Below, piece by piece: positions 4,751-47,625 of a stretch of DNA of 64,000 bases. Both the position numbers and the translations under genes were made by a program. The first letter of the stretch is position 1, and every line of letters starts with the position of its first letter. The notes beneath the pieces are model-generated. The model searched no databases and had not been told where the DNA came from. It saw only the letters and a program-made list of their open reading frames with translations. The DNA is from Patescibacteria group bacterium (GTDB lineage Bacteria > Patescibacteriota > JABMPQ01 > JAQVVF01): positions 143,115 through 207,114 of the forward strand of contig JBAZSC010000003.1 in NCBI GenBank assembly GCA_041662665.1, in the 5' to 3' direction.

Positions 4751-5417
4751 AGGGCCTTTGGATTTACTTTTGGATTTGATTGAAAAAGAAAAAATGGATA
4801 TTACTCATGTTTCATTATCAAAAGTAACAGATGATTATCTAAAATATTTAGAAAATTCAGAGGAAATTAGTCCAGCATTGTTGGCTGATTTTTTGCATGT
4901 GGCAGCACAATTGATTTTGATAAAATCAAGAAACTTATTGCCAGAAATTAATTTAGGAACAGATGAAGAAGTTTCAGCTGCAGAATTGCAAGCTAGATTG
5001 TTGGAATACAAGAAATATAAAGATTTGTCATTAAAAATTCAAGAATTATATGGCAAAAATATTTCTTTTGAACAAAAATTTAGTTTGCAAAAAATCGATG
5101 CTTTCTATCCAGGAAAAACTTTGAATTTAAATAATATGAACTTAGCTTTGTCTGAATTACTTGGTAGATTTGAAAAAATAGAAATATTGGAAAAGAAAAC
5201 AATCAAAAAGGCAGTGTCAATCAAAGAAAAAATTGTTTTTATAAAAGGATTGATTTTGAAGCAAGCAAAATTTAAATTTCATGATTTAATTAAAAATAAA
5301 AAATCAAAGTCTGAAACAATTGTTTCTTTTTTGGCATTGCTGGAATTGAATAAACAGCATTGCTTAAATATCTCGCAAGAAAATATTTTTGGAGATATAC
5401 TTATAAATCGCGACTAG
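4716..5417 (+). CDS. scpA: Segregation and condensation protein A (ScpA)
   Basis: The N-terminal LEKFEGPLDLLLDLIEKEKMDITHVSLSKVTDDYLKYL is the ScpA signature. Start chosen at the internal ATG 4716; the track ORF extends back to 4635. Confidence 0.8.
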   Translation: MQKYNVKLEKFEGPLDLLLDLIEKEKMDITHVSLSKVTDDYLKYLENSEEISPALLADFLHVAAQLILIKSRNLLPEINLGTDEEVSAAELQARLLEYKKYKDLSLKIQELYGKNISFEQKFSLQKIDAFYPGKTLNLNNMNLALSELLGRFEKIEILEKKTIKKAVSIKEKIVFIKGLILKQAKFKFHDLIKNKKSKSETIVSFLALLELNKQHCLNISQENIFGDILINRD

Positions 5418-5451
5418 ATATTCGGATATTACGATATTCGGATATTAGAAA
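5417..5451. repeat. ATATTCGGATATTA tandem motif (locus 1 of 3), between scpA and scpB
   Basis: atattcggatattacgatattcggatattagaaat. Confidence 0.65.
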
Positions 5452-8677: not shown

Positions 8678-8740
8678 GATTGTTAAATTGTTTCATTGTT
8701 AAATTGTTAGCTAAAAAGTTAACAATTTATCAATTTAACA
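8678..8740. repeat. TTGTTAAATTGTT motif cluster (2 direct copies plus 1 inverted), upstream of the CBS gene
   Basis: The exact 13-mer ttgttaaattgtt occurs at 8680 and 8696. Further exact copies are at 47724 and 53834. Confidence 0.55.
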
Positions 8741-11627: not shown

Positions 11628-12714
11628 ATGCAGGAATTATTACAAAAATTAGAAAAAATAAAACAGGACATTGCGAAAGTAATGGATCGTCTTTGATATT
11701 GCGGGTAAAATTAGTAAAATAAGTAAAATAAGTAAAGATGTCCAGAGTCCTGATTTTTGGAAAGATACAAAAAAAGCAAAGGCAGTGATGCGTGATTTGG
11801 ATAGTCTAAAGAAAATGGTGGAATTATGGGAGGGCATGTTAGCTGAAACGAATGATTTATTTGATATGTTAGAAATTGCAAAGGATGATGAAATCTTGCA
11901 AAAAGAATTAGAACAGCGTTTTGAAATATTGAACAAAAAATTTGAACAGCACCAATTTGAAATAATGATGGCAGGTGAATATGATTTGAATAATGCAATT
12001 ATGATGATTCATTCAGGAACTGGTGGAACAGAAGCGCAAGATTGGGCAGAAATGTTACTTAGAATGTATTTGAGATATTGTGAAAAAAGAGGCTGGCAAA
12101 CTGAAATTATCGACAAGGTTTTGGGTAGCGAAGCTGGCATAAAAAATGCTACAATAAAGATAACTGGTAATTATGCTTATGGTTATCTAAAAGCTGAAGC
12201 TGGAATTCATAGATTAGTACGGCAATCTCCTTTTGATGCTGATCATGCAAGACATACTTCTTTTGCTTTGGTTGAAGTAATTCCAGAATTATCATCTGAT
12301 ATTAACATACAAATTGATCCAAGCGAATTAAGAATTGATACATATCGATCAAGTGGTGCAGGAGGCCAGAGTGTTAATAAAACAAGCTCTGCAGTTCGAA
12401 TTACACATTTGCCAACAGGAATTGTGGTTGCTTGCCAGAATGAAAGATCACAAGCTCAGAATAGAGAAACAGCAATGAGTATTTTGAAATCAAGACTTTT
12501 TGAGAGAGAATTGAAAAGAAAGAATGAAGAAAAAGCAAAAATTCGAGGCGAACATATTGAAGCAACTTGGAGCAATCAAATCAGGTCTTATGTTTTACAT
12601 CCATACAAAATGGTTAAAGATCATCGAACAGAATATGAGGTTAAAGATGCGGAGGCAGTGTTAAATGGAGATTTAGATGGATTTATTGATGAGTATTTAA
12701 AACGAGAATCATGA
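11628..12714 (+). CDS. prfB: Peptide chain release factor 2 with a programmed +1 ribosomal frameshift (join 11628..11693, 11695..12714)
   Basis: Frame 0 reads MQELLQKLEKIKQDIAKVMDRL, then CTT TGA at 11691-11696. The +1 frame continues DIAGKI...SPDFWKD and carries SPF (RQSPFD) and GGQ (SGAGGQSVNKT). Confidence 0.9.
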
Positions 12715-12784
12715 ATTAAGAATTATGAATAATGATCTAATGCTTTGATCATAATTCATTATTCATGATTCATAATTCATTTTT

Positions 12785-13462
12785 ATGATTGAATTCAAAC
12801 AAATTAACAAATCTTATTCTGACGGTCTTGTTTTAAGTGATATAAATCTCACAGTCAATGACGGCGAATTTATTACTTTTGTTGGAAGATCTGGCGTTGG
12901 CAAAACGACTATTTTTCGGTTGCTAATTGGTGAAGAAAAACCAGATTCAGGAGAATTAATTGTTAATGGCTGTAATGTCGAAAAATTAAGCAAAAGCAGA
13001 ATTCCATATTATCGCAGAAAATTAGGCGTTGTGTTTCAGGATTTTAAATTGTTATCAAGAAAAACTGTTTATGAAAATGTGGCTTTTACTTTGGTTGTAT
13101 CAGGTGCATCAAATAAAAAAATAAAAGAATTGGTACCACAAGCTATTGGCTTGGTTGGATTGTCAGGAAAAGAAGAACGTTTTCCGCATGAATTGTCAGG
13201 TGGTGAACAACAACGTTGTGCAATTGCAAGAGCTATAGTTCATCAACCAAAAATTTTGATAGCTGATGAGTTGACTGGTGATTTGGATGCAATTTATTCT
13301 TGGGAAATTATGGAAATATTATTAAGAATTAATAAGCTTGGAAATACTGTTTTGATTGCAACTCATGATCGAGATATTGTTAATCGTTTGAATAAAAGAG
13401 TGATTACAATGGAAAATGGCAAGATTGCCAAAGATCAGCGTGTAGGGCACTACATGATCTAA
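12785..13462 (+). CDS. ftsE: Cell division ABC transporter ATP-binding protein FtsE
   Basis: Walker A GRSGVGKTT, signature LSGGEQQR, Walker B ILIADE. Immediately upstream of an FtsX-like permease. Confidence 0.85.
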   Translation: MIEFKQINKSYSDGLVLSDINLTVNDGEFITFVGRSGVGKTTIFRLLIGEEKPDSGELIVNGCNVEKLSKSRIPYYRRKLGVVFQDFKLLSRKTVYENVAFTLVVSGASNKKIKELVPQAIGLVGLSGKEERFPHELSGGEQQRCAIARAIVHQPKILIADELTGDLDAIYSWEIMEILLRINKLGNTVLIATHDRDIVNRLNKRVITMENGKIAKDQRVGHYMI

Positions 13463-13589
13463 TTTCCAATTATCATTTTTCAATTTTCAATAAATAACCA
13501 ATTTTCAATTTTCAGAGCGACGACGTTTTGGAAATTGATCATTGACAATTTATTGTAAATTGGAAATTGTAAATTTTTATAGATAATTT

Positions 13590-14504: not shown

Positions 14505-14565
14505 CTTCACTCTAATACCTCTCAAATAGCACTAATAAAATCTCTAATGTTTTTACAATAACAAA

Positions 14566-15435
14566 ATGAGCGTTATTGAAGTTAAAAATTTAAAAAAATA
14601 TTTTGGCAAGACTAAGGCAGTTGATGGTATTAGTTTTGAAGTTAAAAAAGGAGAGATCTTTGGTTTTTTGGGTCCAAATGGTGCAGGCAAGACAACAGCA
14701 ATTCGATGTATGATGGATTTTATAAAACCGACAAGTGGCGAAATTAAAATTTTAGACAGAGATGCCCAAAAAGACTCTGTTTTTTTGAAAGAAAAAATTG
14801 GCTATTTATCAGGAACTGTCAGGCTCTATGATAAATGGACTGGTAAAGAGCATCTTGATTTTATTAAAGAATTAAATGGCAAAAATAATATTGCTAATGA
14901 TTTGATTAAAAGATTAGACTTTGATGTTAAAGTGAAAACAAAAAGTCTGTCATCTGGAAACAGACAAAAGCTTGGAATAATTATGGCAATGTTATGCAAT
15001 CCAGAAGTTTTAATTCTTGATGAGCCATCAATGGCTCTTGATCCTTTGATGCAACATGAAGTTTATCATTTGATTAAAGAAGCATCAGAAAAAGGAACAA
15101 CTGTTTTTATGTCTTCTCATAATTTGGCAGAAGTGCAGAAAATTTGCAGTAGAATTGGAATTATAAAAAATGGCAAGATGGTAGCAATGGAAGATATTTC
15201 GACTTTGCGACAAAAAAGTATGTATACGATGAATATTAATTTTGAAGATAAAATTAATGCTGATGATTTTAAATTAGCTGGAGTTGAGATAATTAAGGCA
15301 TTGCCGAATGAGTTAAGTCTAGGAGTGAAAGGCGATTTGAATCCAATAATCAAAAAAATTGGTAATTATAGAATAAAAGATTTGGATATTGAACCTGCAT
15401 CTCTGGAAGAGATTTTCTTGGAATATTATGGTTAA
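14566..15435 (+). CDS. ABC transporter ATP-binding protein (ABC-2 type)
   Basis: GPNGAGKTT, LSSGNRQKL, LILDEPSMALD. Confidence 0.85.
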   Translation: MSVIEVKNLKKYFGKTKAVDGISFEVKKGEIFGFLGPNGAGKTTAIRCMMDFIKPTSGEIKILDRDAQKDSVFLKEKIGYLSGTVRLYDKWTGKEHLDFIKELNGKNNIANDLIKRLDFDVKVKTKSLSSGNRQKLGIIMAMLCNPEVLILDEPSMALDPLMQHEVYHLIKEASEKGTTVFMSSHNLAEVQKICSRIGIIKNGKMVAMEDISTLRQKSMYTMNINFEDKINADDFKLAGVEIIKALPNELSLGVKGDLNPIIKKIGNYRIKDLDIEPASLEEIFLEYYG

Positions 15436-15471
15436 ATTATTTGATTATGTTTAAATAAATATAGATGATTT

Positions 15472-15514
15472 TATCGCGGAAATACGCGGAAATTACGCGG
15501 AAAACGCAGAAAAA
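15472..15514. promoter_or_regulatory. Array of 4 direct ACGC(G/A)GAAA repeats at 10-11 bp phasing between the ABC ATPase and permease genes
   Basis: tcgcggaaat-acgcggaaatt-acgcggaaa-acgcagaaa. Ends 3 nt before ATG 15517. Confidence 0.6.
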
Positions 15515-15516
15515 AT

Positions 15517-16332
15517 ATGGTAAAAGAATTTTTCATTTTAGTTTGGCGGACAATTAAAGATCGCAAAATAACGATCATTGTTTATTGTTTGGCAGTAATT
15601 GCATTTTTATGGATGTATGTTGGTTTGTTTCCAGCATTTCGTGATCAGTCAGCAACTTTTAATGAAATGATGAAAAGTTATCCGCAGGATTTCATGAAAG
15701 CTTTTGGAGTGGAAAATATTGATATGAGTTCTTTGGAAAGTTTTTTGGCAATGGAGCAATTTGGAATAATCTGGCCTTTGATGGTTAGTTTTTTGATGAT
15801 TTCTTTGGCTGGAATAATGTTGGCTGGAGAAATAGAAAAGGGAACTTCCGAATTATTATTATCTAGGCCTGTATCTAGGCAACAAATTTTTTGGTCGCGG
15901 TATTTGGTTGGGATTGCTGTTTTGATAGTTTTTGTTTTTTGTTCAGTAATGGCAGTAATTCCTTTTGCGAAAATTTATAAGGTTGATTATCTAATTAATA
16001 ATTTTTGGACAATGTCTATGGCTTGCTTTTTGTTTGGTTGGGCGATTTTCAGCATTGCTTTTATGTTTTCAGCTATTTTTTCAGAGAGAAGCAGAGTTTA
16101 TATGTTGGCAGGTGGCTTGTTAGTTTTGATGTATGTGATAAAAATAATTTCTTCTTTGAAAGAAAGTTTGGAAAATTTGAAATATTTTTCTTTTTTCTAT
16201 TATTATGATGCTAATAGGGCATTGGTGGAGAATATAATTGATGGCAAATCTTGGGTTGTTTTTATGAGTGTTGCTGTTGTTTGTACTGTGATTGGGATGG
16301 TGGTGTTTAGAAAGAGGGATGTGGCGGTGTAG
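15517..16332 (+). CDS. ABC-2 type transporter permease
   Basis: 271 aa with 6 predicted TM helices. Directly downstream of the ABC-2 ATPase. Confidence 0.7.
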   Translation: MVKEFFILVWRTIKDRKITIIVYCLAVIAFLWMYVGLFPAFRDQSATFNEMMKSYPQDFMKAFGVENIDMSSLESFLAMEQFGIIWPLMVSFLMISLAGIMLAGEIEKGTSELLLSRPVSRQQIFWSRYLVGIAVLIVFVFCSVMAVIPFAKIYKVDYLINNFWTMSMACFLFGWAIFSIAFMFSAIFSERSRVYMLAGGLLVLMYVIKIISSLKESLENLKYFSFFYYYDANRALVENIIDGKSWVVFMSVAVVCTVIGMVVFRKRDVAV

Positions 16333-16365: not shown

Positions 16366-17040
16366 ATGAAAAAAATTATATTTATTATATCTTTATTTGT
16401 GTTATTTTTTGGTTTTTATTTTGTTGATGCGAAGAAGCATAAAGTTGTACAAGTGCTTGATGGTAATACAATCAAAGTTAATATTCATGGTAAGATCAAA
16501 TCTGTAAAACTTATTGGTATTGATGCGCCGAAAATTAAAAGTTTTGGAAAATCAGATGAATGTTTTGGTAAAGAAGCATTAAGCTATTTAAAATCTAAAA
16601 TTGAAAATAAGAGAGTAAAGATTTTGAAAGATTCTGATGGGCGTAAGATTGATAATAAAGGATTCCTTTTGCGTTATGTTTATTTGGGTGAAAAAAATAT
16701 TAGTGCAAAAATACTTAAAGATGGTTATGTTTATGTTTATACTGGTTATCATTTTTCTAAAGTTAAAAGATTTAAAAAATTAGAAAAATACGCTCGCAAT
16801 AATGAAAGAGGATTATGGAATATTAGTACATGTGATGGTCAAAGAGAGATACCTGTAAAAGAACCGGTAAAAGTAATTAGTCATATTTATTATACGAGTT
16901 CTTACTATACTGCTAGATATTATTATTGTGATACTGATGATGCATGGAAAGGATTATCGCCGACATATTTAAGATCTTTTAATTCTGTTGAAGAATTATT
17001 GAGAAATTTTCCAGGCAGAATATTACACCAACCTTGTTAA
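16366..17040 (+). CDS. Thermonuclease (staphylococcal nuclease/SNase)-like secreted nuclease
   Basis: Signal/TM N-terminus, then KVVQVLDGNTIKV...VKLIGIDAPK...RYVYLGEKNISAKILKDGYVYVY, typical of the SNase fold. Confidence 0.7.
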   Translation: MKKIIFIISLFVLFFGFYFVDAKKHKVVQVLDGNTIKVNIHGKIKSVKLIGIDAPKIKSFGKSDECFGKEALSYLKSKIENKRVKILKDSDGRKIDNKGFLLRYVYLGEKNISAKILKDGYVYVYTGYHFSKVKRFKKLEKYARNNERGLWNISTCDGQREIPVKEPVKVISHIYYTSSYYTARYYYCDTDDAWKGLSPTYLRSFNSVEELLRNFPGRILHQPC

Positions 17041-17070
17041 AAATATAATTTTCTAAATTAATTTTAAAAA

Positions 17071-18822
17071 ATGGAAAAACAAAAAGACAAGAAAAATTTG
17101 TTGAAATGTTTATTTTCCGGCTTTATTATCATCGGAGTTGTTGTCATAATATTTGGCAATAATAATTTCAACAGATTAAAACCGAATATGGATTCAGCAT
17201 CAAATGAAATCGACGAACAAAGCAAAAAAGATATTTATAATGTTCTTTGGCAGAAAGACATTTCTAAGTGGCCAGAAGGTCTTCCTCAAGAACTAGATGA
17301 AAAAAAATTATCCTCTATTAGTCCAAAAACATTTGGTGAGGAAGTTTTTACTATGCTTCAAGATGTTAAAACAAAAACAATTCCTTTAGTTCAAAGAAAT
17401 CCAAAAGGTTACGATGAATTATCTAAGCTTTCGGAAAATGGATTTAATACAAGAGCAGCCTATACATTGGGAGGATTAATGGGGCCTGATTATTTTAACG
17501 GATATGACGGGATGAAAAGCATTAATAAATTAGAATTTCCTCGAGATTATGGAATGCATGAAAATTTTCAATTTGGATGGAATTTTATGTCCCTTAATCT
17601 CAAAGATCAAAATGGTAATGATATTGATGTACTCATTAATTATTTTACCAGAGCAATATATCCACCTGACATTGCTAAAAAAATGGGCCTCTCGGAAATT
17701 GATAATCAAGTTGTCGAACAAATTGTAGGTGTAGGGTATTCTGATAGAAATTTGCATTTTCAAGCTGCGAATCCGGTAATTTCAGGGAAAACTGGTTTAG
17801 TTGAATTCGGAAGTCAGCCATATGAAATAAAATTTGGAAATAATGAAGTTAAAAGTATTAACAAAGACTCATTTTTGCCATATACCGTCAAAATATATGA
17901 TCCAGAAACTGACCTTAAAATCGATTTAACGTTTGAACAAACAAAACCAATGTTTTTAGAAGGTGATGAAGGCAAAGACCCAAGTATGTATAATCTTGGT
18001 ACATGGTATTATTCAATCCCAAATCTAAAAGTAAGCGGCACAGTTAATTATGCTGGAGATGATAGGAATGTAGAAGGCAAGGGATGGTTTGATAATCAAT
18101 GGACTGCAGGAGTTATGCCTCCAGGATATCCTGATAATTATTATATTCGTGGACTTTCAAACATAGCAACTGTAGCAAAAAACAAAGTATCTCCGGGATG
18201 GGCTTGGGACTGGACAGAAGTTCAGTTTGACAATAATACCGAGATTACCCTTTCCAAAATGCATTCACCGTACGCACAAGACTTAAAAAATCATGGTGAA
18301 ACTCCCCCAGCAAATACGGAAGCGGAAGCTACTGGCAAATTCATTGACACTGATGGCACAGCAACAGATATCAGCGCTAATGTAACAATTAATAAATGGT
18401 TTAAAAGTCCGAATTCTGGCGCATGGTATCCCGATGGTTGGGAAGTTACAGTATCAGAAAAAAATATGACTTTTACTATGACCCCAACTAGCCCTAATCA
18501 ATTATTCACTACTGCCACAGGAGCCGAATTTCGCGAAGGTGGTGTAAAAGTTACCGGCAAAATGGGCGACACTAAACTTGCTGGCTATGGTTTTGGAGAA
18601 GGAACAGCTTATTCAGGACTAGATTATACTTTTTCTAAACAATTTGAAACTCTAGGGGTTGAAGATAGTCCTCAAAATATTGCATTATTTTCTCCATCAG
18701 TTCCAAGTATATGGCTTTTTGTCCAAAGCATTCTTTTATATCTAGTATCTCTCATTTTAATTGCTTGGCTTCTAATTATAATTATTCATGCGATTTCAAA
18801 AAAATTTCATAAGAGAAATTAA
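17071..18822 (+). CDS. Large membrane-anchored extracytoplasmic protein (hypothetical)
   Basis: 583 aa with N- and C-terminal TM helices and a G/N/T-rich central region. No recognisable domain. Confidence 0.6.
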   Translation: MEKQKDKKNLLKCLFSGFIIIGVVVIIFGNNNFNRLKPNMDSASNEIDEQSKKDIYNVLWQKDISKWPEGLPQELDEKKLSSISPKTFGEEVFTMLQDVKTKTIPLVQRNPKGYDELSKLSENGFNTRAAYTLGGLMGPDYFNGYDGMKSINKLEFPRDYGMHENFQFGWNFMSLNLKDQNGNDIDVLINYFTRAIYPPDIAKKMGLSEIDNQVVEQIVGVGYSDRNLHFQAANPVISGKTGLVEFGSQPYEIKFGNNEVKSINKDSFLPYTVKIYDPETDLKIDLTFEQTKPMFLEGDEGKDPSMYNLGTWYYSIPNLKVSGTVNYAGDDRNVEGKGWFDNQWTAGVMPPGYPDNYYIRGLSNIATVAKNKVSPGWAWDWTEVQFDNNTEITLSKMHSPYAQDLKNHGETPPANTEAEATGKFIDTDGTATDISANVTINKWFKSPNSGAWYPDGWEVTVSEKNMTFTMTPTSPNQLFTTATGAEFREGGVKVTGKMGDTKLAGYGFGEGTAYSGLDYTFSKQFETLGVEDSPQNIALFSPSVPSIWLFVQSILLYLVSLILIAWLLIIIIHAISKKFHKRN

Positions 18823-19035
18823 TAAAAAAATTTTATTGATCTTAGATGATGTTGAAAAATTGGTGTTTTAGTTTTTATTTTGATTTGCCAAAATTATTTT
18901 TATGAAAACAAAAAAGAGCAAAACAATTCAAATCGTTCTTCTTGTTTTGATTATTATCGGAATTATTTTGTTGTGTACTCAAAAATTTTGGGTAGACAAT
19001 TTGGTTGATTTTATTATGCAATATGAAAAAATCTA

Positions 19036-19290
19036 ATGTATTATCTTTATATTTTAGAATGTGCTGACAAGACTTTGTACACTGGGATTGCAACAGATCT
19101 GAAGCGGAGATTGCTTGAACATAATAGTTCTAAGTTAGGGGCGAAATATACGTGTGCAAGGAGGCCCGTTAAGTTAGTTTATTCAAAAAAATTTAAAACT
19201 AGATCAAAGGCTTGTATTGAAGAGGCGAGGATTAAAAAGCTAAAAAAAATTGAAAAAATGGAATTGATTCATAGGGGTTCAATATATTGA
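19036..19290 (+). CDS. GIY-YIG nuclease superfamily protein (YhbQ/UPF0213-like)
   Basis: YYLYILECADKTLYTGIATDLKRRLLEHN...KYT...RPVKLVY. Confidence 0.75.
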   Translation: MYYLYILECADKTLYTGIATDLKRRLLEHNSSKLGAKYTCARRPVKLVYSKKFKTRSKACIEEARIKKLKKIEKMELIHRGSIY

Positions 19291-19342
19291 GCCCCTACTG
19301 TTTTTATATTGAAATATTGAAGATTTGCGCTATAATAGGGTT

Positions 19343-19380
19343 GTTCCGCCTTCGTCTCCTTTCGGGAGACTCCGGCGGAT
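19343..19380. repeat. Palindromic element copy 4, abutting the tRNA-Gln 5' end
   Basis: gttccgccttcgtctcctttcgggagactccggcggat, with inner hairpin gtctcc-tttcg-ggagac. Confidence 0.75.
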
Positions 19381-19385
19381 TGCGA

Positions 19386-19456
19386 TCCGGGATCGTCTAA
19401 TGGTAGGACAACAGGTTCTGGACCTGTTTATCTTGGTTCGAATCCAGGTCCCGGAG
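19386..19456 (+). tRNA. tRNA-Gln (anticodon CTG)
   Basis: Manual fold: acceptor tccggga/tcccgga, D-stem gtct/ggac with a GG loop, anticodon stem acagg/cctgt with loop ttCTGga, T-arm cttgg-TTCGAAT-ccagg, discriminator G. No CCA is encoded. Confidence 0.85.
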
Positions 19457-19475
19457 AAAAATATAATATTATATT

Positions 19476-20858
19476 ATGTTGAAACATCATTTTTTTACGC
19501 CAGAATACATGAATGTTTTTGATTTGGATCAGATCTACATGACGAGCTCAATGTGGTATGACACAAAAATGAAAGATACTTGGGCGACTTTTGATTTGAT
19601 TGTTAGAGATATGCCGAAGAATCGTAATTTTTTGATTTTTGCTGGTTTGGAGGAGATGGCAACTCATTTACAAAATTGGAAATACACAAATGAACAAATT
19701 GCGATGCTTAAAAAAATGGAATTAATTTCTGATACGTTTGCTAAATTTTTGAAAACGGTCAAGTTTGAAGGTGATGTTTATGCAATGCCAGAAGGAAGTA
19801 TTTTTTTTAATAATGAGCCAATAGTTAGAATTACCGCTCCTCTGATTCAAGGAAATTTATTGACGGCTTTTATGATGACTTGCTTGAGTTCTAATACTAT
19901 TTATTCTTCGAAATTTGTAAGATCAGTAATCGCTGCCAAAGATAAAAATGTAATCGGTCCAAGTCCAGTTAGAGCCCATGGATTTGAATCTGCTTTTAAA
20001 GCGCAAAGGAGTGCTTATATTGTTGGTAGTAAGCAAGTACCTTCTCCAGTTGTCCGAAACTTTTTAAACATTCCGATGGGCGATAATGCAACAATTGCTT
20101 ATCATGCTTTTGTCAATTCTTATGAATCTGAACAAGAAGCGATGCAAGTTGCCGCAGATCATGCTAAAGTTGATCTTTCTTTGATGGTTGATACTTATGA
20201 TTATGATAAAGGAATAAAAAATGCAATTGTAATTGGAAAACAGTATGAAAAAATGGGCAAGAGTTTGAAAATTGTTGTAGATAGTGGTGATCTGTATGAA
20301 AACGTAGTGAAGGTTAAGAGAAAGATTGATGAGGCAGGCTTAAAAAATATAAGAATTGTTGTTGCGAGCAATCTAGATGAATACAAAATTACTGACTTGA
20401 TGAAAAAGAAAATTCCAGCGAATACTTTTATTGTTTGTACAGAAGCTTTGACTTCTTCAGATGATCCTAAATTAGAAGTTGTTTATAAAATATCTGAAAT
20501 AATAGAAAAAGATGGTAGGATAATTAATAAAATGAAATTATCGCCAGGCAAAATGAGTTTTCCAGGAAGAAAACAAGTTTATCGTAAATTTAAAAATAGT
20601 CATTTTGAAAAAGATATTATTGGATTAGAAGGCGAAAAAGGATTAGGTGAGCCATTATTAAGACCAATATTTAAAAAGGGAAAATTGGTTTATAATTTGC
20701 CAAGTGTTATAAAGATTAGAGATTATGTTTCCGAACAATTAAAGCAAATGCCAGAGAAATATTTAGAAATAGAAAAAACTTATAAATATCCAGTTGAAAT
20801 TAGTGAAAAATTGCAGAAATTAATTATTGAAACAAAAAAGGAAATACAAGCGAAATAA
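19476..20858 (+). CDS. pncB: Nicotinate phosphoribosyltransferase
   Basis: N-terminal FDLDQIYMTSSMWYD and FAGLEEMATHLQNWKYT, typical of the NAPRTase family. Confidence 0.75.
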   Translation: MLKHHFFTPEYMNVFDLDQIYMTSSMWYDTKMKDTWATFDLIVRDMPKNRNFLIFAGLEEMATHLQNWKYTNEQIAMLKKMELISDTFAKFLKTVKFEGDVYAMPEGSIFFNNEPIVRITAPLIQGNLLTAFMMTCLSSNTIYSSKFVRSVIAAKDKNVIGPSPVRAHGFESAFKAQRSAYIVGSKQVPSPVVRNFLNIPMGDNATIAYHAFVNSYESEQEAMQVAADHAKVDLSLMVDTYDYDKGIKNAIVIGKQYEKMGKSLKIVVDSGDLYENVVKVKRKIDEAGLKNIRIVVASNLDEYKITDLMKKKIPANTFIVCTEALTSSDDPKLEVVYKISEIIEKDGRIINKMKLSPGKMSFPGRKQVYRKFKNSHFEKDIIGLEGEKGLGEPLLRPIFKKGKLVYNLPSVIKIRDYVSEQLKQMPEKYLEIEKTYKYPVEISEKLQKLIIETKKEIQAK

Positions 20859-20985
20859 AATTTAAGGAGGGGTAGGGGTTCAGAATTCTGAACCTTTATT
20901 TTTGTTTTCATTCTTTTTGATTGACAGAAAAATATATTTATGTAATGCTATTTAATCGTTCTTTGCCAACAAGGAGGGAAGGGAA

Positions 20986-22266
20986 GTGGAACAAAGAGAC
21001 AGAGATCTTGTTAAAGCGATGGTCAATGCTTATTTGGATAAGATGAGGGCCGGGTCGGATCCAGCGTGGACTGGCAGAAAGGAAAAGAATGCTTTGCATG
21101 ATGCTTTGTATATTGATGGTGTTCCGATTGTCTATGATGAAAAAAATTCTGCTCAATCATTGTTTAGCCAACTTGTTAGATTCAAAAAGGATAGTTTTGA
21201 TTGTTATCCTCGCGATATGGTTTACCATTTTTTGTACATGTTGGAATATCTGCAGATTTTGGAAGAGGATGGAATTAATGGATTGAATAAGAGGATTGCG
21301 ATTCTTGTTGATCAGTTGAGGACAATGAATCGTGATGATTATGATGGTATTCGTCATATTTGTAGACTTTTGGATAATTTGTTACAGACTGTGATTTATT
21401 TTTGTCCGCATCTGGTCTTTGGAGTGGAGTTGAAATTGAAGTCAGGCAGTGTCATGGATGATGAAGCTTTTGGTAATCTTTATGGCTATGAACATAATCG
21501 ATGGCCATATGAGAAAATGATGGAAATGCAAGGATTTAATCCTAATGATTCTCGAAGATTGCGAATGGTTGTTAATTTGCCATATAGTTTTACGACAGGT
21601 ACTCATGGTTCTGGCGAAAGAGCTGCTGTTGGATCATCGCGAGTACCGATTTGTTTTGGTACTTTGATGTATCGAGAAAGAATTCAGAAAAATGGTTCAG
21701 TACCTTGCGTCAAGATTTCAGTGAAACGACCTTTGTTGTCTGAGGATTATACGGCATTTGCAATTGACGAAGTAGAAAGTGTTCGACTTGTTCCAGAATG
21801 TGATTATATTCCATATTATTCTGATTTTGCTGATCATCCAGAAAAAGAAAAGCTGATTTCAAGAATGAAGCCAGAAGATTATTATCTGATTTTCAGAGAT
21901 TTTAGTAATTACGTTAATTTCAGGAGAGATAATGTTCCTAGTTCTTATGATCTATTGGAGCGAGCGGCATTTTTGGCAGGTTTCTGCGAGCCAAGCTATT
22001 TTTGTCGATTAACTGAATTAGATTATGATAGAAAATCTTTTCAACTCGGTTTCATTTGGGAAGTAGATATTCCAAGCCATAAGCCTCAAGTCTATGAATT
22101 TTGGGATATTGAAAAGCCTGATGACGATACTCATGTGGCATTGGGCATGGTCTATGTTGCAATCAAATCACTTGATCAAGAAGTTATGAAGAAGGTGTGT
22201 GTTCACGAAGGCATTGATATTATTCGAAGATTAATGCAAATTCCTGTTCATGATCGACATTTCTAG
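20986..22266 (+). CDS. Hypothetical protein (GTG start, strong Shine-Dalgarno, GC-richer than neighbours)
   Basis: 426 aa ORF. AAGGAGGG lies 7 nt before GTG 20986. No recognisable domain. Confidence 0.6.
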   Translation: MEQRDRDLVKAMVNAYLDKMRAGSDPAWTGRKEKNALHDALYIDGVPIVYDEKNSAQSLFSQLVRFKKDSFDCYPRDMVYHFLYMLEYLQILEEDGINGLNKRIAILVDQLRTMNRDDYDGIRHICRLLDNLLQTVIYFCPHLVFGVELKLKSGSVMDDEAFGNLYGYEHNRWPYEKMMEMQGFNPNDSRRLRMVVNLPYSFTTGTHGSGERAAVGSSRVPICFGTLMYRERIQKNGSVPCVKISVKRPLLSEDYTAFAIDEVESVRLVPECDYIPYYSDFADHPEKEKLISRMKPEDYYLIFRDFSNYVNFRRDNVPSSYDLLERAAFLAGFCEPSYFCRLTELDYDRKSFQLGFIWEVDIPSHKPQVYEFWDIEKPDDDTHVALGMVYVAIKSLDQEVMKKVCVHEGIDIIRRLMQIPVHDRHF

Positions 22267-22341: not shown

Positions 22342-23016
22342 ATGAGAATATTAGTTATTGAAGACGATCGCAAGATCGCTAATGCCATAAAAAAGGGTTT
22401 AGAGCAAGAATCATATGCAGTTGATGCTGTTTTTGATACAAAAGATGATAAATTGGGTCTGGCATTGCTAATCAATTATGATTTGATAATTTTGGATCGA
22501 ATGTTGCCTGGTATTTCTGATGGCTTGAATATTTGTCGAAAATTAAGAAAAGAAGGCAAAAAAATGCCGATTTTAATTTTGACTGCAAAAGATAAAATTA
22601 ATGAAAGAGTGGAAGGACTAGATGCTGGTGCAGATGATTATTTAATTAAGCCTTTTGCTTTTGAAGAATTATTAGCAAGAGTGAAAGCATTATTAAGACG
22701 TCCAAATCAAAGCTTGAATCAAATTCTAAGAGCAGGTGATTTGTCATTAGACTTACAAAATTTTAAAGTAATGCGAAAAAATATCGAAATAAAATTGTCG
22801 AGTACTGAATTTAAATTATTAGAATATCTAATTAGAAATAAAGGCAGAATTTTGACGAAAGATAATATAATGGAACATGTGTGGGATTATGATGCTGAGA
22901 TTTTGCCAAATACGGTAGAAGTATTTATTGGTTATTTGCGCAATAAAATTGATAAACCGTTTTCATCTTTAAGTCATCTTCAGACAATTCGAGGTTTCGG
23001 ATATAAAATTGAGTAA
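22342..23016 (+). CDS. OmpR-family two-component response regulator
   Basis: Receiver MRILVIEDD...LDRMLPG and a C-terminal winged helix. Confidence 0.9.
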   Translation: MRILVIEDDRKIANAIKKGLEQESYAVDAVFDTKDDKLGLALLINYDLIILDRMLPGISDGLNICRKLRKEGKKMPILILTAKDKINERVEGLDAGADDYLIKPFAFEELLARVKALLRRPNQSLNQILRAGDLSLDLQNFKVMRKNIEIKLSSTEFKLLEYLIRNKGRILTKDNIMEHVWDYDAEILPNTVEVFIGYLRNKIDKPFSSLSHLQTIRGFGYKIE

Positions 23017-23035: not shown

Positions 23036-23080
23036 AGATATTCGGATATTACGGATATTAGAAATTAGAAATTAGAAATT
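23036..23080. repeat. ATATTCGGATATTA tandem motif (locus 2 of 3) plus 3x AAATTAG, between the response regulator and kinase genes
   Basis: gatattcggatattacggatattagaaattagaaattagaaatt. Confidence 0.65.
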
Positions 23081-26465: not shown

Positions 26466-27158
26466 ATGATAGAGTGCAAGGGTATTACGAAAATTTACAA
26501 GTCTGGCGAGAATGAATTCAAGGCATTAGACAATGTTTCATTCAAAATTAATGATGGAGAATATGTGGCAATTGTTGGCCCTTCTGGTTCTGGGAAATCA
26601 ACTTTGATGCATATTATCGGTGCTTTGGATACGCCAACATCTGGAGAATATCTATTGGATGATAAGGATGTTTCGAAATTATCTGATGATGAATTGGCAG
26701 AAATTAGGAAAAATAAAATTGGTTTTGTTTTTCAATCTTTTAATTTATTGCCAAGAGCTACTGTATTAAAAAATGTAATTTTGTCATTAATTTATTCTGA
26801 TAAAGATGTGGAAAAGAGAGAGGAAAAAGCCAAGCAAGCATTGTTGCAGGCTGGCATGGATGAAAATCATTTTAATCATCTTTCGAATCAACTTTCTGGT
26901 GGACAAATGCAAAGAGTAGCTATTGCAAGAGCTTTAGTTAATAATCCTTCTTTAATTTTAGCTGATGAGCCAACTGGAAATTTGGATACAAAAACTGGAG
27001 AAATAGTTTTGAAAACTTTTGAAGATTTGAATAGAAAAGAACATCATACGATAATTCTAATTACACACGAACATGATGTGGCGAAACATGCGGATAGGGT
27101 TATTCAGATTAAGGATGGAAAAATTATTAAGGATGATAAAAATATAAAAACTTATTAA
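26466..27158 (+). CDS. MacB/LolD-type ABC transporter ATP-binding protein
   Basis: [35 protein letters not shown]. Confidence 0.88.
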
Positions 27159-27227
27159 CTGTCATTCTGAGGCCGAAGCCGAAGAATCCCATGAATATGC
27201 ATTTAACCAGGATGACGTGGTATTTTT

Positions 27228-28445
27228 ATGAGAATAGCTGATTTATTTCAAGAAACTTATCAAGCGTTAATTGCTAATAAAGTTAGATCAGGTTTGACTA
27301 TACTAGGCATTGTTATTGGTATTGGCTCGGTAATTGCGATGATTGCGATTGGCCAAGGCTCTCAAAAAATGATTCAGTCGAATATTGAATCATTAGGATC
27401 AAATTTGATTTTGGTAATGCCAGGAATGCAAAGGACAGCTGGAGTTAGCCAAGGTAGAGGCTCTTCACAGACTTTGACGCTTGAAGATGCTGATAGAATA
27501 GTTTCTGAGATAAATAACGTGAAAGGAGTTGCGCCGGAATTATCTTCTAGATATCAGGCAGTTGCTTCAGGTAATAATACAAACACTTCGGTTGTAGGAA
27601 CTGTTGCTTCATATCCAACTATTAGAAATTTAACTATTGATCAAGGATCTTTTATATCAGATCAACAAGTTGCTAGTATGTCAAAAGTGGCAGTAATTGG
27701 TCCAACAACTCGTGATGATTTGTTTGGAGAAAATGCAGATTGCTTAGGAAAGATTGTTAGAATTAATGGTATAAATTTTACAATTATAGGCGTGACGAAA
27801 TCGAAAGGCAGTTCTGGCATGACGAATCAAGATGATATGATTTTTGTGCCTATAAAAACTGCTCAACAATTTTTAGCTGGTAGTAATTTTGTTAGTACTA
27901 TTTCTGTCCAAGCAGAAAACCAAAATTCAATGGCTCAAGTTCAAGAAGAGGCAAGTAGCTTGCTTTTAGAAAGACATAATATCTCTGATCCAACCTTAGC
28001 TGATTTTAGTATTATGAATCAATCTGATATTGTGGCAACTGCTTCTTCGGTAACAAATACATTTACTGTTTTGCTTGGATCTGTAGCTGCGATATCTCTT
28101 GTTGTTGGCGGTATCGGTATTATGAATATGATGTTAACTACTGTAACTGAAAGAACTCGCGAGATTGGTTTGCGAAAAGCAGTTGGCGCAAAAAAAGCAG
28201 ATATTAATTTACAGTTTTTGACTGAATCAATAATGCTGACATTTATCGGCGGAGTTTTGGGAGTTCTATTGGGCTGGTTGATTTCGTTAGCAGTACAAAA
28301 ATTTGGTGGAATTACAACAAATATTTCTTTAACTTCTGTCTTATTAGCCTTTGGTGTTTCAGCTTTGATTGGAATTGTCTTTGGATATTATCCTGCACGA
28401 AGAGCGGCAAGTTTGAATCCAATTGAGGCGTTAAGATACGAATAA
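27228..28445 (+). CDS. MacB/FtsX-family ABC transporter permease
   Basis: N-terminal TM, large periplasmic domain, 3 C-terminal TM helices, ends NPIEALRYE. Confidence 0.85.
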   Translation: MRIADLFQETYQALIANKVRSGLTILGIVIGIGSVIAMIAIGQGSQKMIQSNIESLGSNLILVMPGMQRTAGVSQGRGSSQTLTLEDADRIVSEINNVKGVAPELSSRYQAVASGNNTNTSVVGTVASYPTIRNLTIDQGSFISDQQVASMSKVAVIGPTTRDDLFGENADCLGKIVRINGINFTIIGVTKSKGSSGMTNQDDMIFVPIKTAQQFLAGSNFVSTISVQAENQNSMAQVQEEASSLLLERHNISDPTLADFSIMNQSDIVATASSVTNTFTVLLGSVAAISLVVGGIGIMNMMLTTVTERTREIGLRKAVGAKKADINLQFLTESIMLTFIGGVLGVLLGWLISLAVQKFGGITTNISLTSVLLAFGVSALIGIVFGYYPARRAASLNPIEALRYE

Positions 28446-30538: not shown

Positions 30539-30562
30539 AAACACCTTTTGGTGTTTTTTTTA
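30539..30562. terminator. Bidirectional rho-independent terminator ACACC-TTTT-GGTGT flanked by A/T runs
   Basis: aaacaccttttggtgtttttttt serves the convergent genes 30081..30521 (+) and 30560..31759 (-). The hairpin is identical to 37339-37360. Confidence 0.75.
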
Positions 30563-31759
30563 TTTCGTAATAACTCTTTTGAATACTGGAACAGCAATTG
30601 TCAAAGTAACAGCACCAAAAATAAGTAGAATTAAAAGTTCATTTCTGACATCAACAAAGCTTGCTCCCAAGACCATGACTTTGCGTAAAGCATTGATGGC
30701 ATAAGTTAGCGGAATAACTTTGGAAATATCTTGCATGATTTGTGGCATCATTAAAATAGGAAAAAAAACTCCTGATAAGAATAACATTGGAAATTGGAAC
30801 ATGAATAATAGTTGGGTTGCTGTTTCTTGTTCTGAAGCCATAGCAGATACTAAGATACCCAAGCCGACAAATGAAAAAATACCTAAAAGTAAAATTAGTA
30901 AAATTAATAAAAGGTTGCCGTGAATTGTTACGCCAAAAAGAATGACTGCTAAAAGTAAAACAATCGCGCCTTGAATTAAGCCTCTGATCGATTGAGCAGT
31001 TGCCTTGCCTAAAATAATAGCTAGTCGATTGATTGGCGAAATTAAAATACCATCTAGTGTTCCATCTTCTTTTTCTTTAGAAATTGCAGCAGCAAGACCA
31101 GTCAAAACTGCAGTCATAACAATCATAGCCATGATGCCAGGAGCAACAAATTCAAAATAGTTTGGATTGCCTGGAATAATACCTTGAATTGTTGATTTGA
31201 TTGGTTGCATCATTGCAGTGGCTTGTTCTATTGAGCCTGGTTGATTTTCTGGTGATGTAATAATAACTAAAAATTTGGCAGTTTTTTGGATGCCAATTTG
31301 TTGTCCTAATCCAGAGGCCATATTAGATAATATTTGATCAACAACTGCACTGATTTGTGGATTGGATTGGTCTTCAACAATTATTACTTCTGGCTGTTTG
31401 TTGCCATTAATTTGGGAAGTAAAATCTTTTGGAATAAATATTCCACCACTGATTGTTTGTTTTTTAATGCCATTTTTTATTGCATCAATACTATCAAAAG
31501 TTGATGTTTTAAATGCTGATTGATTGTCTTGTTTTAAATCCGTGATCATGGTTACTAATTGGTTTCCGTATTGCTGGTTGTCTAAATTTGCGATGCCAAT
31601 TGGAATATTTTTTAGAGTATTTTGATTAGGAAAAATAAATCCAGTCAAAATCATCATAAAAATAGGCATAATAATGAATGTGGCTAAACGGAGTTTGTCT
31701 CTAGAAAATTCAATTAAATCTTTTTTTGCGATGTGAAATATATCTTTGATTGTTTGCAT
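30560..31759 (-). CDS. ABC-2 type transporter permease
   Basis: 399 aa with an N-terminal TM, a large extracytoplasmic loop and 5 C-terminal TM helices. Confidence 0.75.
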   Translation of the reverse strand: MQTIKDIFHIAKKDLIEFSRDKLRLATFIIMPIFMMILTGFIFPNQNTLKNIPIGIANLDNQQYGNQLVTMITDLKQDNQSAFKTSTFDSIDAIKNGIKKQTISGGIFIPKDFTSQINGNKQPEVIIVEDQSNPQISAVVDQILSNMASGLGQQIGIQKTAKFLVIITSPENQPGSIEQATAMMQPIKSTIQGIIPGNPNYFEFVAPGIMAMIVMTAVLTGLAAAISKEKEDGTLDGILISPINRLAIILGKATAQSIRGLIQGAIVLLLAVILFGVTIHGNLLLILLILLLGIFSFVGLGILVSAMASEQETATQLLFMFQFPMLFLSGVFFPILMMPQIMQDISKVIPLTYAINALRKVMVLGASFVDVRNELLILLIFGAVTLTIAVPVFKRVITK

Positions 31760-31768: not shown

Positions 31769-32686
31769 TTAATGTTGAAATTTTTTCTGCGTTTTCTGCG
31801 TAAGATTCTGCGTTTTTCTGCGATTTATTTTTTTTACGCAGAATGACGCGGAACTAACGCAGAATGTGCAGAATTTATCTGACCCTTTGTTTATTCTCGC
31901 CAAAACGATGCATGTCTGAAGCAGGGATTTTTTTCCAGCATTATCTCTAATTTCAGTACCTGTTACTTTCAAAAAAACATCTTGAAGAGTTGGATTTTCT
32001 TTATTGGTTACTAATTTTTTTAAATTTTCTGAATTATCTAAAGCAACAATTTTTCCATGATCAACAATTGCAATTCTATTTGATAAAATATCAGCTTCTA
32101 ACATGTCATGTGTTGTAAGCAAAATAGTAATTCCTTTTTTATTTAATTCTTGAATAAATTCTCTAATTAAATTGGATGTTTGTGGATCAAGCCCAAGAGT
32201 TGGTTCATCAAGAAAGAGAATATTTGGTTCAGTTAATAAGGCGCGAACAATATTGATTCTTTGTTTCATGCCAGTTGAATATGTTCCAACTTGAGAATCA
32301 AGCCAATCAGTCATGTGCAATCGATCAACCCATTTTTTTGTTCGATCTGTAATTTGTTGTTTTGAGAGATGAAAAAGTTGGCCGAAGAATCTTAGATTTT
32401 CTCGAGCAGTTAATCGATCATAAAGAATAATTTTTTCTGCGACTAAGCCGATTTGTTTTCTAATGTCATCTGGATCTTTTTTTAAATCAAAACCAGCTAT
32501 TTTAATTTCACCTTCTGTTGGCTGTAAAAGTGTGGTTAAAATTCTGATTGTTGTTGACTTGCCAGCACCATTTGGGCCAAGAAATCCAAAGATTTCACCT
32601 TTTTTAATTTCAAAGCTAATATTGTCAACTGCAATAAATTTTTTAAATTTTTTTGTTAAATTTTTTACTTCAATAATATTTTCCAT
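31769..32686 (-). CDS. ABC transporter ATP-binding protein (ABC-2 type) whose 3' tail runs through the CGCAGAA repeat array
   Basis: GPNGAGKST, YSTGMKQRI, LFLDEPTLGLD. The domain ends near LQDVFLKVTG; the final ~55 codons translate repeat DNA. Confidence 0.8.
   Translation of the reverse strand: MENIIEVKNLTKKFKKFIAVDNISFEIKKGEIFGFLGPNGAGKSTTIRILTTLLQPTEGEIKIAGFDLKKDPDDIRKQIGLVAEKIILYDRLTARENLRFFGQLFHLSKQQITDRTKKWVDRLHMTDWLDSQVGTYSTGMKQRINIVRALLTEPNILFLDEPTLGLDPQTSNLIREFIQELNKKGITILLTTHDMLEADILSNRIAIVDHGKIVALDNSENLKKLVTNKENPTLQDVFLKVTGTEIRDNAGKKSLLQTCIVLARINKGSDKFCTFCVSSASFCVKKINRRKTQNLTQKTQKKFQH
31783..31873. promoter_or_regulatory. Palindromic super-array: 4x TTCTGCG, AT spacer, then 4x CGCAGAA, between the ABC ATPase and permease genes on the minus strand
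   Basis: ttctgcg at 31785, 31794, 31806 and 31816. acgcagaa/acgcggaa at 31836, 31846, 31857 and 31866. Confidence 0.6.
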
Positions 32687-33488: not shown

Positions 33489-34775
33489 ATGATAGAAATA
33501 TTAAGAAATTTATGGAGGCGAAAATTTAGAACTTTATTAACTATTTTTGGTATTGCAATTGGTATTTTTGCATTTACAGTAATGGGATCGATGGCTCTGA
33601 AATTAAATAAAATGATTGATGGAGGAAAAAAATATGTGACTGGTCAAATTACAATTGCTCCAAAAGGCACTGATTTTATGATGGGACAAATGGGAGCAAT
33701 GTTGCCGGTTAATACACTAAACAAAATTGCAAAGGTTGAAGGTGTTGAAGCAGTGACTGGCGGAATTGAATTGTCATTAGATGAGCCGAATCCTGATGAT
33801 CCAGCATCAATGAGTTTTGGCATGCCAGCAACAATTGAAGGCATGGATTTGAAAACCAAATTTAAAAACAGAAATTGGGAAAATATGGAAATGAAAGAAG
33901 GCAGAATGATTAAAGAAGGCGATCCTGATGATGTGATTGCAATTGGGGAAACAATAGCTTTAGATAAGAAATGGAAATTAGATGACAAGGTAAAAATTCG
34001 TGGCAAAGAGTTTAAGGTAATTGGTATTTTGGATAAAACAATGACTGGACCTGATTCGTATGTTTTTATGCCTTTAAACTCTGCTCGAGATTTGTATGTA
34101 GAGTCAAATCCATTTTTGAAGTCATTAAAAGAACAACAAGCTCAGGCTGCAAATATTTCTACTAGAGAATTAGCTAGTTTACCAAAAGCAACTAGAGATC
34201 AAATTATGCAAGCAAAAGCTTTTAAAATGGAAGATTTATCCACTATGGGATCAATATCTTGGAAAGACGGAGCAGATTCTGAAGTTGTAGCGAATAAGAT
34301 CAAAGAAAAATTTAAAGATGAAGTTATAGTATTATCCCCAAAAAAAATGGGAGAAGAAATTGATAAAGCTTCGGCAATGATGAATGCTGTTATTTTAGGT
34401 GGCGCATTATTAGCTTTGTTAGTTGGAAGTTTTTCTGTTATCAATACGATGATTATGTCGATTTCTGAAAGAACAAGAGAAATTGGTATTAAAAAATCTT
34501 TGGGTGCATCAAATAAATCGATTGCTTTGGAATATGCTTTAGAAGCTGGTGTAATTGGAACTTTGGGCGGCATATTGGGTATCAGTATTGGTGTTTTATT
34601 GATTGTAATATTTAATAATAAAATGGCAGAAACTGGTGCTGAAGTATTTTTGTTAGATATTAAGTTTTTGTTTGAAGTTTTATTATTTTCATTTATATTA
34701 GGAATCGTAGCTGGTATTTTGCCAGCAATTAAGGCAGCAAAGATGAAAGTAATACAGGCGATTAGAGAGATGTAA
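33489..34775 (+). CDS. MacB/FtsX-family ABC transporter permease
   Basis: N-terminal TM, periplasmic domain and C-terminal 3-TM FtsX domain. Confidence 0.8.
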   Translation: MIEILRNLWRRKFRTLLTIFGIAIGIFAFTVMGSMALKLNKMIDGGKKYVTGQITIAPKGTDFMMGQMGAMLPVNTLNKIAKVEGVEAVTGGIELSLDEPNPDDPASMSFGMPATIEGMDLKTKFKNRNWENMEMKEGRMIKEGDPDDVIAIGETIALDKKWKLDDKVKIRGKEFKVIGILDKTMTGPDSYVFMPLNSARDLYVESNPFLKSLKEQQAQAANISTRELASLPKATRDQIMQAKAFKMEDLSTMGSISWKDGADSEVVANKIKEKFKDEVIVLSPKKMGEEIDKASAMMNAVILGGALLALLVGSFSVINTMIMSISERTREIGIKKSLGASNKSIALEYALEAGVIGTLGGILGISIGVLLIVIFNNKMAETGAEVFLLDIKFLFEVLLFSFILGIVAGILPAIKAAKMKVIQAIREM

Positions 34776-34783
34776 TTTATTTT

Positions 34784-34866
34784 ACGCAGAACAACGCAGA
34801 AGCTGACGCAGAAGACGCAGAAAAGTTTCCGCATTTTCTGCGTTGGATTCTGCGTATGTCTGCGTT
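34784..34866. promoter_or_regulatory. Everted super-array: 4x ACGCAGAA then 4x (T)TCTGCG, upstream of the MacB-type ATPase gene 34943
   Basis: acgcagaa at 34784, 34794, 34806 and 34814. ttccgca/ttctgcg/ttctgcg/gtctgcg at 34828-34864. Confidence 0.6.
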
Positions 34867-36298: not shown

Positions 36299-36308
36299 TA
36301 AAAATTAT

Positions 36309-36334
36309 GAACAGCCTAATGGTTGTTTTTTTAT
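36309..36334 (+). terminator. Rho-independent terminator after the ORF6N gene
   Basis: aacagcc-taat-ggttgtt followed by T8. Confidence 0.65.
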
Positions 36335-36394
36335 ATTCACTTGTTATACTTAAGTGTTAAAAATGTTCCTTCGACAAAAAGGGAGGGAGAGAAA

Positions 36395-39356: not shown

Positions 39357-39400
39357 CAAACACTCAAACAATAAAACAAAAAAACAATAAAACAAATCTT

Positions 39401-43356: not shown

Positions 43357-43419
43357 AATAGTTAGACTGGTTAAATTTAGCGTAAAATTAATAAAATTGA
43401 TAAAATTAATAAAAAAAAT

Positions 43420-47617: not shown

Positions 47618-47625
47618 TATTCGGA

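Follow-up and report, generated by a model that had tools for sequence, protein, structure and literature searches.

In a 64,000-nucleotide (64-kb) fragment of a Patescibacteria (CPR) genome, called the window throughout, four short direct repeats lie between an ABC transporter ATPase gene and an ABC-2 family permease gene and stop almost at the permease start codon. The locus raises the question of whether these repeats are a control element belonging to the operon, or dispersed DNA that has come to rest in it. The window has a GC content of about 31% and a strong positive GC skew, and nearly every gene is on the + strand. The genes prfB, ftsE and ftsX are located upstream of the ATPase/permease pair (14566-16332), and a Shine-Dalgarno sequence is missing from most genes of the window, as it is from the permease gene.

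The array and the ATPase/permease junction

The locus had been described before from its letters alone. The four repeats of that sequence-only reading are present at the site it gave, and the identities assigned to the flanking genes were confirmed by their ABC_tran and ABC2_membrane_2 domains (Table 1). The repeat unit is the heptamer CGCRGAA. The phasing, given as exactly 11-11-10, was wrong: the start-to-start distances measured between units are 10, 11 and 9 bp, and the inter-unit spacers are unequal (ATA, ATTA and AA). The base ahead of the first unit, read as A, is T (TCGCGGAAA), and the segment 15470-15519 as a whole is TTTATCGCGGAAATACGCGGAAATTACGCGGAAAACGCAGAAAAAATATG. That the repeats run up to the start codon holds for the array, and the distance of 3 nt needed correction, since the last heptamer ends 5 nt ahead of the permease ATG at 15517 and a trailing A-run extends to 15515. 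CGCRGAA occurs 29 times in the window against an expectation of 6.1 +/- 2.5, a count reached by none of 100 dinucleotide shuffles, and 20 of these 29 heptamers are grouped into five clusters.

The 81-nt spacer between the two genes (15436-15516) is identical in two independent assemblies of the same strain (L001 and L002), with no difference in copy number. A scan for sigma-70-like promoters found none on the + strand of this spacer, and a scan for intrinsic terminators found no terminator-like site in it; the array can therefore reasonably be called intra-operonic and, if transcribed, would lie on the permease initiation region, both as previously proposed. The permease leader contains no Shine-Dalgarno sequence and no GGAGG, and its predicted fold with the array is not significant (z = -1.27). 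Rfam searches of the whole window and eight related loci, at gathering and E-value thresholds, matched no array to a family and returned tRNA and rRNA hits only. Weak Rfam matches to plant miRNA precursors at the arrays were set aside as merely array hairpins.

Table 1. Features of the array, its junction, related copies and other arrays. Positions are those of the window unless a locus is named.
Feature	Position	Strand	Details
ABC transporter ATPase gene	14566-15435	+	ABC_tran with DrrA-type C-terminus; 5' of the array
ABC-2 family permease gene	15517-16332	+	ABC2_membrane_2; 3' of the array
Four-unit CGCRGAA module	15475-15511	+	CGCGGAA at 15475-15481, 15485-15491 and 15496-15502; CGCAGAA at 15505-15511
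Inferred insertion, 79 nt	15437-15515	+	38-nt AT-rich left part, four-unit module, A-run; alignment with L003, L004, L006 and L242
Left copy of duplicated target, TATGGTTAAA	15427-15436	+	Contains the ATPase stop TAA (15433-15435) and the former, overlapping start of the permease (ATG, 15428)
Right copy of duplicated target, TATGGTAAAA	15516-15525	+	9/10 identical to the left copy; holds the present permease ATG (15517)
Leftover mini-ORF MVKLFDYV*	15428-15454	+	Opened by the old start codon; 8 codons; overlaps the ATPase stop
4+4 palindrome	31785-31873		TTCTGCG x4 at 31785-31822; CGCAGAA-type x4 at 31837-31873, spacing 10-11-9
4+4 palindrome	34785-34854		CGCAGAA x4 (spacing 10-12-9), then TTCYGCR units
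2 + AT hairpin + 2	37388-37448	+	Units at 37388, 37398, 37433 and 37442; upstream of glnA (37495)
Three units, spacing 12-9	41949-41976	+	AT hairpin and degenerate unit (~41914) in front; between TauE-like and GSDH-like genes
Word-array spacers, examples (1)	5417-5447, 8679-8740, 12706-12790, 13461-13575, 14505-14565, 23037-23080
Word-array spacers, examples (2)	39357-39396, 43383-43414, 47617-47742, 49765-49944, 50588-50722
In-frame module in topA	L015 4140-4177		CPR genome; insertion relative to E. coli TopA
In-frame module in class I aminoacyl-tRNA synthetase gene	L063 1760-1799		CPR genome
In-frame module in infB	L054 6243-6309		CPR genome; G domain
In-frame module in miaA	L025 5358-5396		CPR genome
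Module inside insertions of 23S rRNA gene	L074 637-2097		CPR genome

The orthologous gene pairs of related genomes are arranged differently. In L003 and L004 (85% permease identity) the two genes share 8 nt, in L242 (88%) they share 11 nt, and in L006 (80%) they are separated by 11 nt. Alignment with these loci shows that a 79-nt segment carrying the module sits in a junction at which stop and start overlap in related genomes. When the segment 15437-15525, comprising the insert and the right duplicate, was removed in silico, the ATPase end EYYG* overlapped the permease start MVKEFF, which is the arrangement of the relatives. Only at this copy was a target duplication observed. Within the window the left 38 nt of the insert are unique, and there was no support for reading this AT-rich half as the decayed remains of an inverted arm or as duplicated from another locus.

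The earlier suggestion of a translational control element owned by the operon is thus unsupported: the spacer is a lineage-specific insertion, with an empty site in three related genomes and a 10-bp duplication, and the same module is also located behind stop codons, ahead of glnA, and within ORFs and rRNA genes of other genomes. Insertion would break translational coupling, as ribosomes leaving the ATPase gene would meet only the 8-codon leftover ORF. The permease start would now be used de novo, 81 nt downstream, from a purine- and A-rich, weakly structured leader that has no Shine-Dalgarno sequence and consists largely of repeats. An effect on permease translation through lost coupling is likely; an altered permease level, if any, would be a by-product of the insertion rather than an evolved control circuit. 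Because the insertion falls between genes that overlap in relatives, selfish or neutral DNA is more likely than a purpose-built translational switch. The sequence analyses gave no indication of condition-dependent control, and a dedicated regulatory role for the array in the permease operon, though possible, is not supported. On this reading the repeats would mark a recent insertion that destroyed ATPase-permease coupling, and annotation as an operon-specific regulator would mislead.

Copies of the module in the window and in other genomes

The five copies of the window (Table 1) have in common an asymmetric spacing of 10, then 11-12 or a hairpin, and then 9. The array at 15475-15511 and the copy at 31779-31823 are identical at 38 of 45 aligned positions, including the flanks AT (ahead of CGC) and CGCAGAAAAAAT. 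Since local slippage cannot give a common asymmetric spacing with unequal spacers, the thing copied is the whole four-unit module. The sister copies are also insertions, the corresponding junctions being 8-70 nt long in relatives. Long hairpins are predicted for both 4+4 copies (-47.4 kcal/mol, z = -8.4, and -39.3 kcal/mol, z = -7.8).

The copy at 31785-31873 lies directly after the ancestral stop of an ATPase gene (31880-32686, minus strand), with 24 nt between it and the start of a second ABC-2 permease gene (30560-31759, minus strand). This sister copy (31785-31822, minus strand) bears out the earlier remark that the repeats are "again" intra-operonic. The ATPase/permease spacer of this second ABC-2 operon is 22 nt long in L239 and L240 and holds a different palindromic element in L236. 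A separate observation, at 31876-31936, concerns the ATPase gene itself: compared with its orthologues it carries a 1-nt frameshift in an A7 run (31925-31936), and with this frameshift the called ORF continues across the 4+4 element and gains about 45 junk residues. The frameshift may be genuine or may come from an error of assembly.

The copy at 34785-34854 is placed between a MacB/FtsX-type permease gene (33489-34775) and an ABC ATPase gene (34943-35623), a spacer of 8-70 nt in ten relatives. At the same site L236 has a related word (GCGCTGAT/CGCTGAA) as a direct array, with flanks that can still be aligned. Arrays thus persist at a site, yet turn over and homogenise fast.

A genome scan, with one genome per species, for three CGCRGAA units separated by 1-5-nt spacers returned at least 120 loci. 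The matches listed came from Patescibacteria, Omnitrophota, Elusimicrobia, Bacteroidota, Acidobacteriota, Burkholderiales, Planctomycetota, Verrucomicrobiota and two archaea. A longer middle spacer, such as (9,11,9) or (10,12,10), was found in 33 of the 45 four-unit arrays among the matches listed; the spacing was equal in 10 of these 45 and followed the reverse pattern in 2. Many of the listed arrays are palindromes of 3-4 + 3-4 units, with flanks specific to the phylum and several copies per genome, and palindromic copies were also seen in Ramlibacter, Variovorax and Acidobacteria. Direct-only arrays among the matches listed were in sense orientation in 15 cases versus antisense in 5. In CPR genomes the module was located in frame within protein genes and inside insertions of a 23S rRNA gene (Table 1). 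The 0.89 Mb of listed CGCRGAA loci hold 204 further short-word arrays, which indicates that CGCRGAA is one word of a general phenomenon.

Matches in viral contigs comprised 96 stretches, nearly all of them uniform-spacer coding repeats with a period of 9 or 12, so the module does not appear to be phage-borne. A plasmid collection yielded only a copy on a Variovorax secondary replicon, between convergent genes, and a coding repeat in Vibrio. No transposase, RAYT, reverse transcriptase or integrase is encoded among the approximately 66 ORFs of the 64-kb window. An all-against-all comparison of 2,588 ORFs from the 120 listed loci found no gene travelling with the arrays, the top families occurring in only 9 loci. 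When the ORF6N, HD, GIY-YIG, response-regulator and unknown proteins of the window were compared with the 120 listed loci by tblastn, only two response-regulator hits were obtained, and a search for autonomous elements, as inverted-orientation arrays 0.3-4 kb apart, found none that was convincing. A literature search on the CGCRGAA heptamer itself returned primers only.

Relation to known repeats and possible roles

The array at 15475-15511 is best explained as a direct-only copy of a dispersed non-coding module of four CGCRGAA heptamers with variable short spacers, which would act like a selfish or neutral element of the REP/MITE/RPE type. We consider it rather probable, with considerable room for doubt, that the insert in the ATPase/permease junction is an element of this kind. 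Candidates for the copying process are a transposase or another binding protein that would recognise the heptamer, or recombination or template switching between arrays. Against a selfish element stand the almost perfect conservation of the heptamers beside variable spacers, and the location of the module just upstream of the start codon in two ABC-2 permease genes of the window. Conserved heptamers with a recurrent short-long-short spacing are what binding-site selection would be expected to produce, and a trans-acting factor, hence a function, is therefore plausible.

The module may accordingly be a cis-regulatory array bound by a trans-acting factor at the RNA or DNA level, which we regard as possible but doubtful. 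Single-stranded heptamers beside the start codon could be recognised in the RNA by the ribosome or by a protein of the S1, Csp or KH type, as has been suggested for TAACTGA repeats. In the DNA, the array could be occupied by a dimer-of-dimers direct-repeat binder, such as the OmpR/PhoB-type winged-helix regulator encoded at 22342-23016, or by a ribbon-helix-helix protein. The copies would then form a small regulon, with three ABC transporter operons and glnA among its members. Conservation of the heptamer cores while the spacers vary is consistent with this, as are the 2+2 layout with a longer or hairpin-bearing middle spacer that recurs in the genome and across phyla, a mean period of about 10 bp, near one helical turn, the position of the module next to the start codons of two ABC-2 permeases, the sense-strand bias of direct-only arrays (15 versus 5 among the matches listed) and the precedent of heptamer repeats at starts without a Shine-Dalgarno sequence (PMC4679880; bioRxiv 10.1101/2022.06.06.494920). 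Against a regulatory array, the repeats are absent from the orthologous junctions of close relatives, and the different word (GCGCTGAT) at the MacB-type permease/ATPase junction of L236 points to fast turnover. The module also occurs within essential ORFs and rRNA genes, yet not upstream of the response-regulator operon itself; the spacer has no predicted promoter, no co-occurring protein was found in the 120 listed loci, and in the RNA of the palindromic copies the heptamers would be base-paired.

Replication slippage offers an account of another kind, in which the array would be a purely local simple-sequence repeat (LSSR), unrelated to other arrays, functionless and possibly phase-variable. 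Such an array would correspond to what Mrazek called a long simple sequence repeat (summarised in PMC4679880). Tandem arrays of many words with periods of 7-12 are exceptionally abundant in the window, other genomes with CGCRGAA arrays likewise hold many arrays of other words, and units are homogenised within an array, three being CGCGGAA here versus CGCAGAA in the sister copy. We nevertheless think this account unlikely. Slippage would duplicate the unit together with its spacer, yet the spacers differ, and the array does not consist of the identical head-to-tail units, with no spacer, that are expected from slippage of contiguous heptamers. It also leaves aside the asymmetric 10 / 11-12 / 9 spacing and the flanks common to distant copies, the 38 nt of non-repeat DNA in the insert with a 10-bp duplication on its flanks, and the equal copy number in two independent assemblies. 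That the array is an internal promoter, or a terminator or attenuator separating permease from ATPase transcription, is very improbable. The palindromic sister copies would form strong RNA hairpins and could be processing or stabilising sites, as REP elements in the malE-malF spacer of E. coli are; the copy at 15475-15511 has no inverted arm and no significant fold, and 15436-15516 contains no terminator-like site and no promoter-like site on the + strand.

Several other explanations were dropped. CsrA GGA sites do not fit because most copies are CGCAGAA; the sequence or architecture is unfit for ParB/Noc half-sites, MraZ boxes, ARG boxes or CRISPR, and likewise for Chi or DNA-uptake sequences and primase CTG sites. 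A-tract curvature was dropped since other arrays have periods of 7-9.

Among described elements, the module resembles dispersed short intergenic repeats with a behaviour akin to REP/REPIN and MITE/RPE. Classic REP sites are found in ABC transporter operons, at malE-malF and hisJ-hisQ. Like the REP, BIME and REPIN elements of Proteobacteria, the CGCRGAA module is short, non-coding, high-copy and intergenic, often forms inverted hairpin pairs and often lies between the genes of an operon. The palindromic copies of the window and those of Ramlibacter, Variovorax and Acidobacteria have this appearance. Unlike REP, a 20-40-bp palindrome with a GTAG or CGTC tag (PMC3733652), its arms are periodic heptamers with no tagged palindrome; no RAYT gene is present in the 64-kb window, and the copy at 15475-15511 is direct only and non-palindromic.

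A second likeness is to MITEs and to the Rickettsia palindromic elements (RPE), the latter reportedly described by Ogata et al. in 2000. These are small non-autonomous insertions (reviewed in PMC2229807 and PMC3184786), and the module resembles them in the target duplication at this copy, in a presence or absence that differs between close relatives, and in family members in frame inside essential genes (topA, infB and an aminoacyl-tRNA synthetase gene). The window holds five copies with a common architecture, with an empty site in relatives and a 10-bp duplication for this copy. Terminal inverted repeats, as in MITEs, are absent from the copy at 15475-15511, where an inverted arm is missing; two of the sister copies are palindromes. 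The module differs further in having no known parent insertion sequence with matching ends, in its undefined ends and in a far shorter unit, of about 38 nt per arm; an identical heptamer across phyla would be unusual for MITE terminal repeats. Because the module lacks the GTAG/CGTC palindrome and, in this copy, terminal inverted repeats, it is not placed in any named family.

The mycobacterial interspersed repetitive units (MIRU), said to have been described by Supply et al. in 1997, are likewise short repeats in the spacers of polycistronic operons at overlapping stop/start junctions. Unlike MIRU, which have units of 40-100 bp and a short ORF of their own that restores coupling, the CGCRGAA units are heptamers and coupling would be broken. 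Operators of the OmpR/PhoB family include pho boxes, and the PhoP sites of Bacillus have four repeats at an 11-bp period. The array is similar in its four direct repeats with a 6-7-bp core and a period of about 10-11 bp, and an OmpR-type regulator is encoded 7 kb away; it differs in having no promoter context, no conservation at orthologous sites, copies in ORFs and rRNA genes, and a frequently palindromic form.

The nearest described phenomenon is that of the TAACTGA heptamer direct repeats of marine Beggiatoaceae, Cyanobacteria and Bacteroidetes (MacGregor 2015, PMC4679880), together with the TTTTGAA/TTCAAAA heptamer repeats of Nostoc (bioRxiv 10.1101/2022.06.06.494920). Both share with the CGCRGAA module two to six direct heptamer copies between genes, many of them only a few nucleotides from a start that lacks a Shine-Dalgarno sequence, a mostly sense orientation, a patchy distribution across phyla with some copies inside ORFs, and the lack of an identified binding protein or mobilising gene. 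The units of those two repeats follow one another without a gap, at a period of 7, whereas CGCRGAA alternates with variable 2-5-nt spacers at periods of 9-12; its four-unit layout is fixed, the middle spacer is longer, and an inverted partner array is often present. The CGCRGAA insert also has a documented target duplication and an empty orthologous site.

CGCRGAA is tied to a four-unit architecture that is found in distant phyla, in essential genes and in rRNA genes. We tentatively suggest, as a less than probable reading, that the 2+2 (CGCRGAA)x4 module, often mirrored into a 4+4 hairpin, is an undescribed cross-phylum class of element whose heptamers would bind a widely distributed protein, either a mobilising enzyme or a nucleic-acid-binding host factor. 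In CPR bacteria such an element would colonise rRNA genes and the junctions of operons, and would sit in frame within essential protein genes. A shared copying mechanism or binding protein, should there be one, would account for a class of bacterial repeats to which both heptamer arrays near starts and REP-like hairpins with periodic arms belong. The single array is of moderate interest and the cross-phylum four-unit module is the part that deserves follow-up; because the module is present in culturable Ramlibacter, Variovorax and Caenimonas, the question is approachable by experiment.

Other repeats and genes of the window

Tandem arrays with periods of 7-12 make up 13.7% of the intergenic versus 0.73% of the coding DNA of the window, and 28 intergenic arrays were counted versus 2.4 (maximum 8) in shuffles. 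At least ten array words are present, for example ATTGTTAA, GATATTCG, CTCTAAT, TCATAAT, CAATTTTC, GTTAGAC, ATTAGAA and CACAGAT, and in many cases an inverted array comes next. In most cases a short intergenic spacer is built of 7-9-nt words in tandem (examples in Table 1), and the array density of the window exceeds that of every relative examined. The window thus represents a CPR lineage with intergenic spacers largely built of short-word arrays. Some of its words were found again in L006 at non-orthologous sites. Arrays of the window's other words were absent from the unrelated loci; as these loci had been chosen for CGCRGAA, the comparison is a biased test of whether that word is special.

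The prfB region (11628-11740) contains the classical +1 frameshift site CTT TGA (11692), and shortly 3' of it a 9-nt array of 3.6 units (GTAAAATAA) encodes an in-frame KISKISKIS that is missing from the prfB orthologue of L003. Between the permease and response-regulator genes, this sister species has a GIY-YIG gene, a tRNA, a Cas12a-Cas4-Cas1-Cas2 locus and a CRISPR array (L003 4873-11785); the counterpart in the window (16366-22266) holds a staphylococcal-nuclease-like gene, a CrtC/lipocalin protein gene, GIY-YIG, tRNA and NAPRTase genes and an unknown gene. Genes for an ORF6N (KilA-N-like DNA-binding) protein and an HD-domain protein lie at 35774-37162, between the ABC ATPase gene and glnA. 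In the nearest relative, L236, glnA directly follows the ATPase gene, and the pair is therefore a two-gene insertion of the window; no connection of this pair to the arrays was found. A stretch of 666 nt (53818-54483) has no ORF of 80 aa or more and contains several short lysine- and glutamate-rich reading frames.

Two further small elements were observed. A GC-rich hairpin motif, CCGCCTTCG...(C)TTCGGCGG(A), occurs on the + strand at 9284, 10202, 19346, 28469, 29890/29927 and 44939; it has 11 matches versus 1.7 expected, is located upstream of genes and of the tRNA at 19386-19456, and has no Rfam match. A second small palindromic element (GTCATYCTGAGG...GAATCCC...CAGGATGAC) occupies 27159-27227 and separates an ABC ATPase gene (26466-27158) from a MacB-type permease gene (27228-28445); members of its family lie at other operon junctions in relatives (L003 12461-12554 and junctions of L236).
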